A stretch of 64,000 nt of DNA, taken from contig NZ_JASBRN010000072.1 in assembly GCF_030149505.1 (NCBI RefSeq), positions 34,482 to 98,481 on the forward strand, given 5' to 3'. Shown in pieces: positions 29,564 to 33,422 of this stretch. The position numbers and the translations under genes were made by a program. Position 1 is the first letter of the stretch. Each line of letters opens with the position of its first letter. The notes beneath the pieces were generated by a model that saw only the letters and a list, made by a program, of their open reading frames with translations, searched no databases and had not been told where the DNA came from. This DNA is from Nocardioides sp. (GTDB taxonomy: Bacteria > Actinomycetota > Actinomycetes > Propionibacteriales > Nocardioidaceae).

Positions 29564-31018
29564 TCAGCCGGCCGGGAGCGGGGTGTAGATCGACTTCAGC
29601 TCGGTGTACTGGCCCAGGCCCTCGGGGCCGAACTCGCGCCCCAGCCCGGAGGCCTTGAAGCCGCCGAAGGGGGCGGCGAAGTCCATCGTGTAGGTGTTGA
29701 TGCCGTAGGTGCCGGTGCGGACGCCGCGGGCCACCTCGAGACCGGCCTCCACGTCGGCGGTCCACACGGTGCCGGCGAGCCCGTAGTCGGAGTCGTTGGC
29801 GATCCGCACGGCGTCCTCGACGCCGTCGTAGGCGATGACCGACACGACCGGGCCGAAGATCTCCTCCTGGGCGATCCGCATCCGGTTGTCGACGTCGGCG
29901 AAGACGGTGGGCCGGACGTACCAGCCGTGGTCGAGGCCCTCGGGCATCCCGACGCCGCCCGCGACGAGGCGGGCGCCCTCCTCCTGCCCGAGCGCGATGT
30001 ACTTCTGCACCCGCTCCTGCTGGCGCTGGGCCACCATGGGGCCGATCTCGGTGGCGGGGTCCATCGGGTCACCGACGCGCATCCCGCCGATGCCCTGGGC
30101 GATCGCGTCGACCAGCTCGGCCTGGCGCGAGCGCGGCACCAGGACGCGGGTCTGCGCGACGCAGGCCTGCCCGGAGTTCATCACCGAGAGGAACTTCAGC
30201 CCCTCGACGGTGGTGGTGAGGTCGGCGTCCTCGAGCACGATCGCGGCCGACTTGCCGCCCAGCTCGAGGGAGACCCGCTTGAGCTGCTCGCCGCACACGG
30301 CGCCGATCGCGCGGCCGGCGGCCGTGGACCCGGTGAAGGCGACCTTGTCCACGCCGGGGTGCGCCACCAGGTGCTGGCCGACCTCGCGACCGCCGGCGAC
30401 GATGTTGATCACGCCGGCCGGGACGCCGGCCTCCTGGAGCAGCTCGGCCATCAGGTAGCAGTCCAGCGGCGACTCCGGCGCGGGCTTGACCACCACGGTG
30501 CAGCCGCTCAGCAGGGCCGGCACGACCTTGGACAGCACGGTGAACTGCGGGACGTTCCACGGCGGGATGGCCGCGACCACGCCGACCGGCTCGTGCCGCA
30601 CGACCACGTCGGAGCCCAGGGCGCCGGGGCGGGTGGCCTCCCACGGGAACTCCCGGGCGATCGCCAGGAAGGCCTCGATCTGCATCCACGGCGCGGGGGC
30701 CTGGGCCAGCTGGGAGAAGGAGGTCGGCGAGCCCATCTCGAGGGTGATCAGCTCGGCCATCTCGGTGAGCTTGCCGGCGTAGAGCATCGAGAACGCCTCG
30801 ATCACCGCGATCCGCTCGGCCGGCGACATCCGCGGCCACGGGCCGTGGTCGAAGGCCTGGCGGGCAGCGGCGACGGCCGCGTCGACGTCGGCGTACGACG
30901 CCTCGGGGACGGTGGCGATGACCTGCTCGGAGTGCGGGGAGACGACCTGGATGGTCGAGGTGGTCTCGGGGGCGCGCCAGCCGCCGTCGATGTAGAAGGC
31001 GTCGCGGTCGAGGGTCAT
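29564..31018 (-). CDS. Aldehyde dehydrogenase
   Basis: AIPPWNVP, AFTGSTAAG, LELGGKS, NSGQAC, EEIFGPV. Confidence 0.95.
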   Translation of the reverse strand: MTLDRDAFYIDGGWRAPETTSTIQVVSPHSEQVIATVPEASYADVDAAVAAARQAFDHGPWPRMSPAERIAVIEAFSMLYAGKLTEMAELITLEMGSPTSFSQLAQAPAPWMQIEAFLAIAREFPWEATRPGALGSDVVVRHEPVGVVAAIPPWNVPQFTVLSKVVPALLSGCTVVVKPAPESPLDCYLMAELLQEAGVPAGVINIVAGGREVGQHLVAHPGVDKVAFTGSTAAGRAIGAVCGEQLKRVSLELGGKSAAIVLEDADLTTTVEGLKFLSVMNSGQACVAQTRVLVPRSRQAELVDAIAQGIGGMRVGDPMDPATEIGPMVAQRQQERVQKYIALGQEEGARLVAGGVGMPEGLDHGWYVRPTVFADVDNRMRIAQEEIFGPVVSVIAYDGVEDAVRIANDSDYGLAGTVWTADVEAGLEVARGVRTGTYGINTYTMDFAAPFGGFKASGLGREFGPEGLGQYTELKSIYTPLPAG

Positions 31019-31046
31019 GTCGGCTCCAGATGTGAGGGAGTGGATG

Positions 31047-31084
31047 GGTTTCGAGACGGGACTTCGTCCCTCCTCAACCAGCGG
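31047..31084. repeat. REP-like element overlapping a stop codon
   Basis: GGTTTCGAGAC-GGGAC TTC GTCCC-TCCTCAACCAGCGG; shares TCAACCAGCGG and GGGACTT with 36729-36826. Confidence 0.5.
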
Positions 31085-32225
31085 CCACGGAGAAGAAGTC
31101 GGTGAAGCCGGACGGCTCGTGCTTGCCGACGCAGAAGTGCTCGAAGAGGCCGAAGCCCTCGGCGGTGCCGCTCCCCCGCGAGGGCTCGGTGACGACGGCG
31201 CGGCCGACGTGGTCGACGCAGCCGAACATCAGCATGCTCCGCACGGCGTCGCTGGTGAGGTCGTAGGTGCGGCGCTCGACGAACTCCTCGCCGTGCCACT
31301 GCCCGTGCAGCCAGTCCTGGTCACCGCCGTACCCGCCGCCGAAGTGCAGCGGAGCCGCGAGCCGGGACTCGACCTCGAGGCGCAGCGGGCCCTGGCGGGT
31401 CTGGCACTCGATGCTCGCACCGGTGGGCAGCCGCCCGCCGGGGGTGTAGTGGATGGTGACCTGCGGCCAGCCGAGCTGCTCGACCCGACCGTCTCCCCAC
31501 ACGCGGGTGCAGTCGTTGAGGGTGCGGGTGCCCTCGCCGTCCTCCTGGATGATCAGGCAGATCATGTAGTCGTCGAAGCGCATCGGGACGTAGAGCCACC
31601 ACATGCCGTCGAAGTCGGCCGGTCGTCCGGCGGGCTCGGCCTCCCCCACCGGGCGGATGCCCCAGGAGCGGTCGCGCGAGCCGACCCAGGTGTCCGGGCT
31701 GACGGCGATCTCGGTGCCGTCGACCGACAGCGAGCCCGACCAGGTGCCGACCTGCGCGAAGCGCTGGGCGTCGAGCACGACCCGGGTGCCCTGGCGCATG
31801 ACGTGCCGCTGCTCCTGCACGACCTCGAAGGAGCCCTCCCAGGTCAGGTCGCAGGCGAGGCCCTCGGTCTCCTCGAGCACCATCCGGATCTTGTGCAGCG
31901 GCTCGATGACCTCGAGCCGGTACCCGCCGACCCGCTGGTCGAGCTGGCTGTGGCCGTCGTCGATCGCGCCGCCCAGGTGGACGGCGGTCTGCTCGGTGCC
32001 GCGCGTGACGAGGAAGTAGGCGTCCTTGGTGCGCAGGTTGGGGTAGTAGCCCATCCCGCTGATCACGAAGATGTCGCCGGTGCGGTCGTGGGCGTTGAAG
32101 TAGCAGCGGTCGTAGAAGTGCCGGTCGCTCGGCCCGGGCCAGCCGATCGGCTGCGGGACCTGGTGGATCGGGTACTCGTCGAGGGGGCCCAACCCGCCGC
32201 GGGCGCTGCCCTGAGATGCGGCCAT
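31074..32225 (-). CDS. Conserved hypothetical protein (recalled as Rv3169-like; cyclase/hydratase-like beta fold by inference)
   Basis: LDEYPIHQ, FYDRCYFN, GSRDRSWGIRPVGE; ATGA-coupled to upstream phosphotransferase. Confidence 0.8.
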   Translation of the reverse strand: MAASQGSARGGLGPLDEYPIHQVPQPIGWPGPSDRHFYDRCYFNAHDRTGDIFVISGMGYYPNLRTKDAYFLVTRGTEQTAVHLGGAIDDGHSQLDQRVGGYRLEVIEPLHKIRMVLEETEGLACDLTWEGSFEVVQEQRHVMRQGTRVVLDAQRFAQVGTWSGSLSVDGTEIAVSPDTWVGSRDRSWGIRPVGEAEPAGRPADFDGMWWLYVPMRFDDYMICLIIQEDGEGTRTLNDCTRVWGDGRVEQLGWPQVTIHYTPGGRLPTGASIECQTRQGPLRLEVESRLAAPLHFGGGYGGDQDWLHGQWHGEEFVERRTYDLTSDAVRSMLMFGCVDHVGRAVVTEPSRGSGTAEGFGLFEHFCVGKHEPSGFTDFFSVAAG

Positions 32226-33373
32226 CAGGCGCCGACCCTCTCCAGGATCGAGAGCAGCAGCGGCTTGCAGTGGAACAGCGACTCGATGTCGTCGGGCATC
32301 TCGATCTCGCCGAAGTGCACCTGGCGCGCGCCGGTGCGCATGAAGACGATGCACCACATCAGGCCGTTGTAGACGTGGTACCAGTCGAGGTCGCCGAGCT
32401 GGACTCCGGACTTCTCGGCGTACGTCGCCACCACGTCCTCCTCGCGCAGGAAGTGCGGCATGCCGGGCAGCTCGAGCATCCCGACGATGGACTCGAAGAC
32501 CTGGTGGGCGAAGAGCAGCCAGCTCACGTCGAGCGCGCGCGGGCCGAGGGTGACCATCTCCCAGTCGAGGACGGCGACCGGCTCGAAGTCGCGGTAGATC
32601 ACGTTGCCGATCCGGGCGTCGCCCCAGCACAGCACCGGCTCGCCCTGCTCGGCCTCGGACGGGATGTGCGCCTCGAGCCAGGCCAGCGCCCGCTCGGCGG
32701 TCGGCGAGGGCGCGAGGTCGCGGACGGCGAAGTCGTACCAGGCGCGGACCTTGGCCAGGTTGCGGTGCAGCAGCGTCTCGCCGACCTGCTCGGGGGCGAG
32801 GTAGCCGAACCGGTCGAGCGGGTCCGGGATCGCGTGCAGCCGGGCGAGGACGTCGACGGTGGCGTCCTGGAGGCGCCGCTGGTCGGCTCGTTCGGCGTCG
32901 TAGAGCCAGTTGTCGCCGAAGGGGTAGGGCAGCACGTCGGGCGGGACGACGCCCTCGACCCGGTCCATGAGGAAGGAGGGGGTGCCGAGGACCTCGCCGG
33001 CCTCGTCGAGCCACCGCACGCCCGGGACCGGGACGTCGGTGAGCTCCCCGACCTGGCGGATGACCTCGAACTGGTGGCCGAGGTCGTAGCGCGGGAAGAC
33101 CGGGAAGTCCTGGGGAGCGGGGGCGACGCGGGCGACGAGCGGGTGCGACGTGCGCTGCCCACCCTCGGTCCAGGTGGCGTCGAGGACCAGCGTCTCGGAG
33201 GACATGCCGTTGGAATCGATGCCGCTGTGCAGCACGACCTCGGGGTCCGCGCCCTCGGGCAGCAACGTGGACAGCCACCGCTCGAGCGCCGCGGGCACCA
33301 GCGCGGCGTCCCGGCTGCTGCGCTGCATCTTCAGGTCGGCCGGGGGCGCCTCGGGAGGTGTTGCCTGGGTCAC
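32225..33373 (-). CDS. APH/choline-kinase-like phosphotransferase (recalled as Rv3168-like)
   Basis: [33 protein letters not shown]. Confidence 0.9.
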
Positions 33374-33386
33374 ACGGACACCTTCC

Positions 33387-33400
33387 TAGAACGTGTTCTA
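33387..33400. promoter_or_regulatory. KstR-type operator
   Basis: TAGAACGTGTTCTA (extends to CCTAGAAC-GT-GTTCTAGG), 13 nt upstream of phosphotransferase start; exact reverse complement of the 18308 site. Confidence 0.7.
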
Positions 33401-33402
33401 GG

Positions 33403-33422
33403 TGTCAACAGATTCGTTGACA
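33403..33422. promoter_or_regulatory. Second palindrome adjacent to the KstR-type box
   Basis: TGTCAAC-N6-GTTGACA; contains TTGACA on both strands. Confidence 0.5.

Follow-up and report, generated by a model that had tools for sequence, protein, structure and literature searches.

A predicted KstR-controlled operon in Nocardioides that joins homologues of a steroid kinase and a phosphosteroid lyase to an aldehyde dehydrogenase

Introduction

What do an APH-fold kinase, a protein of the Rv3169 family and an aldehyde dehydrogenase (ALDH) do in one operon, and why does a site resembling the operator of the sterol repressor KstR lie at its promoter? This question was raised by a 64,000-nucleotide stretch of DNA from Nocardioides sp. 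(contig NZ_JASBRN010000072.1, positions 34,482 to 98,481; hereafter the window, to which plain coordinates refer). The genome is that of a high-GC actinobacterium (4.17 Mb, 72.6% GC), and its nearest public loci came from Nocardioides-type metagenome-assembled genomes and isolates. Our answer, to which we give a probability of roughly 60%, is that the operon encodes a KstR-repressed, ATP-dependent dehydratase for 25-hydroxylated sterols together with an ALDH, and that these enzymes supply the aerobic side-chain pathway.

The biochemical precedent comes from Sterolibacterium denitrificans, in which a 25-hydroxysteroid kinase (25-HSK), together with a lyase that eliminates phosphate, removes water from 25-hydroxy-3-ketosteroids, giving the delta-24 alkene and consuming one ATP (PMC7411048, PMC8449060), and a dedicated NAD-dependent C26 aldehyde dehydrogenase finishes the oxidation to the carboxylate (PMC7411048, PMC8449060, PMC11061730). 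Actinobacterial homologues of the kinase, with up to 46% identity, had already been noted when 25-HSK was described; at that time (2021) the lyase gene was still unidentified, with no candidate near the kinase gene in Sterolibacterium (PMC8449060).

Gene content of the operon

The operon consists of three co-directional genes on the minus strand, in the following order:

33373..32225 (-), APH-fold kinase, 382 amino acids (aa), GTG start; Pfam APH, E 1e-22
32225..31074 (-), Rv3169-family protein, 383 aa; NCBIfam NF053593, 455.9 bits (cut-off 150), E 8e-137
31018..29564 (-), NAD(P)-dependent ALDH, 484 aa; Pfam Aldedh, E 1e-156

The coordinates and the Pfam and NCBIfam matches agreed with the original prediction, made from the letters of the window, of a kinase, a conserved protein and an ALDH on this strand. 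Its assignment of the first two genes as homologues of Mycobacterium tuberculosis Rv3168 and Rv3169 also held, as the kinase matched PDB 3ATS (Rv3168) at E 4.9e-149 and the second protein exceeded threefold the cut-off of NF053593 (Rv3169_fam), a family that in June 2026 was still named 'Rv3169 family protein'. The coupling of the two genes had been described as ATGA; the kinase stop and the following start in fact share TGATG, with an overlap of 1 nt, and despite this difference the genes are translationally coupled. The conserved N-terminus of the kinase (MTQATPP...QRSSRD) begins at this GTG. The ALDH gene starts 55 nt beyond the second gene with a GGAG of its own, and within the operon no site resembling a terminator was predicted; a consensus scan of 29000-33700 detected neither an intrinsic terminator nor a canonical sigma-70 promoter. 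Upstream lies glpD on the same strand, with its stop at 33447, leaving an intergenic region of 73 bp.

Both proteins of the pair aligned to structures deposited for steroid enzymes. The kinase matched PDB 9FSG end to end (E 5.5e-78, residues 15-377 to 9-371), and the alignment showed that the catalytic motifs CWGDARxGN (GDARxGN) and LDWEM (DWE) are retained. 9FSG is probably the Sterolibacterium 25-hydroxysteroid kinase; it has 379 aa, and 25-HSK was reported at 43.3 kDa (PMC8449060). The Rv3169-family protein matched PDB 9FZN, deposited as '25-phosphosteroid lyase', over about 320 residues (13-329; E 1.1e-72), and its gene, termed the lyase gene below, adjoined the kinase gene in nearly all loci inspected. 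On sequence grounds, the kinase is thus an Rv3168 orthologue of the 25-hydroxysteroid kinase-like type. The operon had originally been proposed to point to an undescribed kinase/ALDH branch of sterol or lipid metabolism; undescribed chemistry is not supported, given the homology of the pair to Sterolibacterium 25-HSK and 25-phosphosteroid lyase (25-PSL) (PMC7411048, PMC8449060).

The APH fold would also be compatible with an aminoglycoside or other antibiotic phosphotransferase with unrelated neighbours, and Rv3168 has been discussed in reviews as a putative aminoglycoside kinase (PMC3691515). We consider this hardly credible for the kinase of the window: none of the curated resistance families of NCBIfam matched it, and Pfam returned just the general APH fold; its gene is in every case coupled to that of the lyase, and here a KstR operator precedes it; and the closest relative among characterised proteins is a steroid kinase.

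Operator and promoter

The elements upstream of the kinase gene that bear on its regulation were as follows:

33387..33400 (strandless), predicted KstR operator, perfect 14-bp palindrome TAGAACGTGTTCTA
33403..33408 (-), -35 hexamer TTGACA, read directly; also the inner half of a second palindrome (see below)
33380..33385 (-), -10-like hexamer GAAGGT, with A at position 2 and T at position 6; placed from geometry and relatives

The box matches the experimentally defined KstR operator TnnAACnnGTTnnA (PMC1995591). Both its position and its relation to a second site, TAGAACACGTTCTA at 18308-18321, of which it is the exact reverse complement, were as originally reported. The consensus matched twice in the window, against 0.05 matches expected, and none of 100 shuffled sequences reached two. 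The other box lies in the middle of a palindrome, about 32-34 bp long and rich in GC (18298-18331), and it directly precedes a gene for a luciferase-like oxidoreductase (Pfam Bac_luciferase).

The box upstream of the operon occupies the 17-nt spacer between the TTGACA -35 and the weak -10, 13 nt before the kinase GTG. This promoter was placed by its conservation in relatives, because the consensus scan yielded no canonical one. Since the GTG lies only 6 nt past the -10-like GAAGGT, we infer that the operon mRNA is probably leaderless. The site had been assigned to a combined promoter and Shine-Dalgarno (SD) region; the promoter half of that assignment stands, with the box now located within the spacer, whereas the GGAAGG taken as an SD sequence is more likely part of the -10 (GAAGGT).

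Conservation of the operator across Nocardioidaceae

Conservation was assessed across 200 genomes sampled evenly from the same family; 29 of them encode the lyase, with an adjacent kinase gene in 27 loci. Scanning upstream of these orthologues, as had been suggested with the prediction, recovered the box in 26 of 27 Nocardioidaceae loci: 19 carried the strict form directly upstream of the kinase gene, 7 a form with a single change at an outer position, and 1 none. The box was retained at kinase identities down to 41%, while the flanking noncoding sequence had become unalignable. In the public collection, all six Nocardioides-type loci with the pair had a strict box before the kinase gene, and a Marmoricola locus had one with a single substitution.

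As to the promoter elements, 18 of the 26 box-bearing orthologous loci had a TTGACA (at most one mismatch) 2-3 nt upstream of the box, with diverged flanks, and a weak nAnnnT hexamer followed 17-18 nt downstream of the -35 in relatives. In a more distant clade, the box lies between the -10 and a strong SD sequence; proximity to the start is therefore the constant feature, and the position relative to the promoter varies. An inverted repeat, TGAC-N4-6-GTCA, was observed 7-32 nt after the box, at the start of long 5' leaders, in nine loci (L002, L003, L019, L069, L070, L072, L074, L078, and L082), independent of the reading frame; in the leaderless version predicted for the window, the start codon and first codons take its place.

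Genomes that encode the lyase also tended to encode KstR. An orthologue of the repressor was found in 26 of the 29 lyase-positive genomes of the family, compared with 40 of the 171 lyase-negative ones, and the three exceptions comprised two incomplete genomes and one genome with only a distant lyase homologue, which has no kinase beside it. Within the genus of the window, 10 of 13 genomes had both and 3 had neither. This co-occurrence is supportive and not statistical proof, as related genomes are non-independent.

The second palindrome

Next to the KstR box lies a further palindromic element:

33402..33423 (strandless), palindrome GTGTCAAC-N6-GTTGACAC, flanked by the glpD stop (33447) and the KstR box

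A palindrome abutting the KstR site, TGTCAAC-N6-GTTGACA, had been pointed out previously; it was indeed present at 33403-33422, extends to arms of 8 bp at 33402-33423, and stands 2 nt from the box. It had been taken to indicate dual regulation, with a second regulator binding it and acting together with KstR. The perfect 8+8-bp symmetry, its overlap with the -35, and its near-conservation in the closest relative (L001, 96% protein identity, one mismatch in the left arm) would fit such an operator. The comparative evidence speaks against it. The palindrome is a single copy in the genome, and we therefore rejected it as a recurrent operator; the conserved -35 accounts for the right arm; and the left arm was lost in L002 and L003 (kinase about 90% and lyase 88% identical) and in all other relatives. 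L002 and L003 have another gene between glpD and the operon, and the palindrome was found only where glpD is immediately upstream. The corresponding RNA would fold into a 9-bp hairpin 24 nt past the glpD stop, and the palindrome may be a 3' hairpin of glpD. A second regulator at this site is accordingly very unlikely, and the comparison does not support the proposal of dual control.

The KstR orthologue and the steroid regulon

Reciprocal searches identified the KstR orthologue of the genome at C85:354988-355569. The query was the KstR of the mycobacterial genome that holds locus L006, a protein that matched PDB 5CW8 at E 1e-112 and whose own gene is preceded by a TAGAACGTGTTCTA box. The orthologue matched this query at E 3.7e-60, and the next TetR protein reached only 1e-7. 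Its identity to mycobacterial KstR is about 53-54% overall and about 80% over the 70 N-terminal, DNA-binding residues; with its DNA-binding domain conserved to this extent, the orthologue is therefore expected to recognise the same operator.

Genome-wide, 29 strict KstR boxes were found, nearly all of them intergenic, near gene starts and adjoining steroid-pathway genes. The flanking genes included two divergent pairs, one of a CYP125 orthologue (E 9e-156) with a thiolase and one of a KstD-like flavoprotein with an HsaE-like hydratase, together with genes for an HsaA-like oxygenase, a ChsH2-like hydratase, a fused FadE34-like acyl-CoA (coenzyme A) dehydrogenase and three acyl-CoA ligases, as well as several luciferase-like oxidoreductases, short-chain dehydrogenases/reductases and a glucose-methanol-choline (GMC) oxidoreductase. 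Comparison thus lends strong support to the control by KstR that was originally suggested, through the orthologue itself, the boxed steroid regulon and the operator conserved in orthologous promoters, and repression of the operon by KstR appears very likely.

A few boxed genes were of interest in their own right. Boxes precede genes for an 807-aa sulfatase, possibly a steroid sulfatase, and a 650-aa protein resembling 2-oxoacid:ferredoxin oxidoreductases (C61:95567 and C82:6684; L047 and L052). Another precedes the gene for a 751-aa molybdopterin oxidoreductase (C85:326032-328293; L055). We considered the latter as a steroid C25 dehydrogenase (S25DH) and rejected it: its nearest relatives were formate dehydrogenase and thiosulfate reductase, and its match to type II dimethyl sulfoxide reductase enzymes was weak and partial.

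One boxed gene offers a different candidate for the protein that binds the operator. Among the 38 TetR genes of the genome, only the one at C85:204938-205525 is preceded by a box, a pattern typical of autoregulation, and the true kstR orthologue has no box upstream. This TetR protein (195 aa; region C85:204914-205525, L054:1621-2208) has two relatives of 45-47% identity in one Mycobacterium genome, and no KstR box was found near either of them. It was rejected as the KstR of the genome, since it matched those relatives at E 9e-36 and 3e-32, compared with E 1.6e-5 for KstR. As a competing ligand of the operator it is improbable as well. Its helix-turn-helix differs strongly from that of KstR (26% identity; E 2e-5 to 5CW8), whereas the DNA-binding domain of the KstR orthologue is nearly unchanged and the box is the defined KstR operator (PMC1995591); moreover, a TetR gene as a member of the regulon would be unremarkable.

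Predicted function

In the mechanism that we propose, KstR bound to the operator in the -35/-10 spacer would block RNA polymerase, and a sterol-derived inducer would release it, upon which the three enzymes would be made. The kinase would then phosphorylate the tertiary 25-hydroxyl of the sterol side chain with ATP, and the lyase would eliminate the phosphate to leave the delta-24 alkene, the two acting together as an ATP-dependent dehydratase. Oxidation of the alkene at C26, probably by the co-regulated CYP125, would provide the C26 aldehyde for the ALDH, and the resulting 26-oate would, after CoA activation, enter side-chain beta-oxidation. The likely role of the operon would be the salvage of 25-hydroxylated sterols, such as oxysterols, autoxidation products and off-target P450 products, because a tertiary C25 alcohol resists dehydrogenation and would block the side-chain pathway (pathway logic, PMC7411048). 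Dehydration of a steroid tertiary alcohol is probably the reaction of the kinase-lyase pair.

Within this scheme, the step from steroid-26-al to the acid is the least secure, and the ALDH may or may not perform it, with the balance slightly towards the latter. The gene immediately follows the pair in 14 of the 27 family loci and in L001, L002, L003, L021, and L022, and all of those loci are boxed. No NCBIfam equivalog scored above its cut-off for the protein, and the best solved structure was 3B4W (E 6.7e-153), an M. tuberculosis ALDH that we take to be Rv0223c. For Rv0223c, PMC1995591 gives a predicted KstR motif together with a negative electrophoretic mobility shift assay. Orthology to Rv0223c is ambiguous: Mycobacterium sp. 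BK086 encodes five paralogues with more than 50% identity, and only the second-best of them has a box, in degenerate form.

Several points weigh against the proposed function. Identities of about 40-45% to the characterised enzymes do not fix substrate specificity, and the reference enzymes of Sterolibacterium belong to an anaerobic pathway with molybdenum C25/C26 hydroxylases. A clear S25DH homologue was not evident in the genome, the boxed molybdenum enzyme being formate-dehydrogenase-like. The identification of 9FSG as 25-HSK is based on its deposited name, its size and neighbouring PDB codes. On the regulatory side, no box was found upstream of the kstR orthologue, even when three mismatches were allowed, and the second, weakly KstR-like TetR gene does carry one. 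Finally, about half of the family loci lack the ALDH gene, as do the mycobacterial loci, and this ALDH has many paralogues, so that its coupling to the pair is the weakest link.

Some of these points would equally suit an operon that belongs to the KstR regulon and acts on another alcohol, with the ALDH serving an unrelated aldehyde. Candidate substrates would be an alcohol at another position of the steroid, a 26-hydroxysteroid, hydroxylated vitamin D, phytosterol side chains or a non-steroid isoprenoid tertiary alcohol. The limited identity and the lack of an evident C25 hydroxylase leave room for them, 25-HSK itself is promiscuous and accepts 26-OH steroids and 25-OH vitamin D3 (PMC8449060), and the partner genes vary, with an ALDH gene in the window and a luciferase-like oxidoreductase gene in mycobacteria and at L018. 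On the other hand, the KstR box links the operon to steroid catabolism throughout the family, the pair co-occurs with KstR, and small tertiary alcohols are barely accepted by 25-HSK (PMC8449060). We therefore regard a different alcohol as unlikely and retain a 25-hydroxylated sterol as the preferred substrate. Conservation of the operator across Nocardioidaceae constitutes independent genomic evidence for a steroid role of the actinobacterial pair, and this role agrees with the function of the solved proteobacterial homologues.

Mycobacterial loci

An extension of the KstR link to M. tuberculosis is not supported. When up to three substitutions were allowed, a KstR box was still missing ahead of the kinase gene in all of about 20 mycobacterial loci, and Rv3168 is absent from the M. 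tuberculosis KstR motif instances listed from Table 3 of PMC1995591. The published repressor is instead Rv3167c, a divergently encoded TetR protein: Rv3168-Rv3169 were among the most de-repressed genes in the Rv3167c mutant, and Rv3167c binds a palindrome in the intergenic region beside them (PMC5340868). The same operon is thus assigned to a global sterol repressor in Nocardioidaceae and, in M. tuberculosis, to a local one, which makes it a clear example of regulatory rewiring between families.

Most environmental Mycobacterium loci contain a gene for a luciferase-like, probably F420-dependent oxidoreductase beside the lyase gene. It was seen at L006:7115-8095, at L018:7174-8178, and in 13 other mycobacterial loci, in convergent or co-directional orientation. 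At L018, the luciferase-like gene has a KstR box of its own, and the lyase gene has no kinase gene adjacent to it.

It is conceivable, and we put it forward as a tentative extension, that aerobic actinobacteria including M. tuberculosis (through Rv3168-Rv3169) convert 25-hydroxylated sterols, such as 25-hydroxycholesterol from macrophages, to delta-24 sterols that re-enter CYP125-initiated degradation. The system would then be wired to KstR in Nocardioidaceae and to Rv3167c in mycobacteria, and the ligand of Rv3167c would be a 25-oxygenated sterol. Among the papers searched, none linked Rv3168 or Rv3169 to steroid chemistry or described the 9FSG and 9FZN structures. Rv3168 has long been labelled a 'putative aminoglycoside phosphotransferase' and Rv3169 a conserved hypothetical protein, and the pair now has a function that can be tested. 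The proposal points to a way in which actinobacteria, perhaps pathogens among them, may handle 25-hydroxylated oxysterols, and it would place a chemistry thought typical of oxygen-free sterol degradation within aerobic steroid regulons.

Downstream region and neighbourhood

A 1.58-kb insertion (27986-29563) separates the operon ALDH gene from a second ALDH gene (26268..about 27950). It contains an open reading frame at 29366..28068 (-) for a secreted protein of 432 aa, which has a signal peptide and matches nothing in Pfam. The insertion was present in L003 and absent in L001, L002, and L022, where the second ALDH gene follows directly. The operon as a whole lies within a guaB2/guaB3 ... ChoD-like GMC oxidoreductase ... 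guaA neighbourhood (22607-26520, 40278-44950), presumably the conserved one of mycobacteria. No KstR box accompanies the ChoD-like gene (24538..26520) itself.

Comparison with known systems

The closest regulatory parallel is the KstR regulon of Mycobacterium and Rhodococcus, which shares with the window genome an identical operator consensus (PMC1995591), a conserved DNA-binding domain of the repressor, and much of its content (CYP125, KstD, HsaA, FadE34, ChsH2, and luciferase-like oxidoreductases). The kinase-lyase-ALDH operon, in contrast, is not a reported member of the mycobacterial regulon. The position of the repressor gene differs as well: in mycobacteria, kstR is divergent from fadE34, an arrangement that was not found for the fadE34-like gene of the window genome, where kstR also has no box of its own.

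With respect to the genes, the nearest counterpart is M. tuberculosis Rv3168-Rv3169 (PDB 3ATS/3ATT), an orthologous pair in the same order and with tight coupling. Unlike the operon in the window, it has no upstream KstR box and no downstream ALDH gene, and it is under local TetR control.

The biochemical counterpart is the Sterolibacterium set of 25-HSK, 25-PSL and C26-ALDH (9FSG/9FT5/9FU5; 9FZN/9G2I/9G4C). The kinase and lyase belong to the same families as those of the window, at an identity of about 40-45%; the catalytic motifs of the kinase are kept; and an NAD-type ALDH, compared here by enzyme class, is part of the module. The predicted chemistry is likewise the same, namely the ATP-dependent loss of water from a tertiary alcohol of the side chain and then oxidation to the C26 acid. 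The host, however, is an aerobic actinobacterium in which CYP125 is present and molybdenum C25/C26 hydroxylases are not evident, and its kinase and lyase genes overlap and form one operon with the ALDH gene behind a KstR operator. Overall, the finding places a known enzyme system in a new context, both regulatory and physiological.

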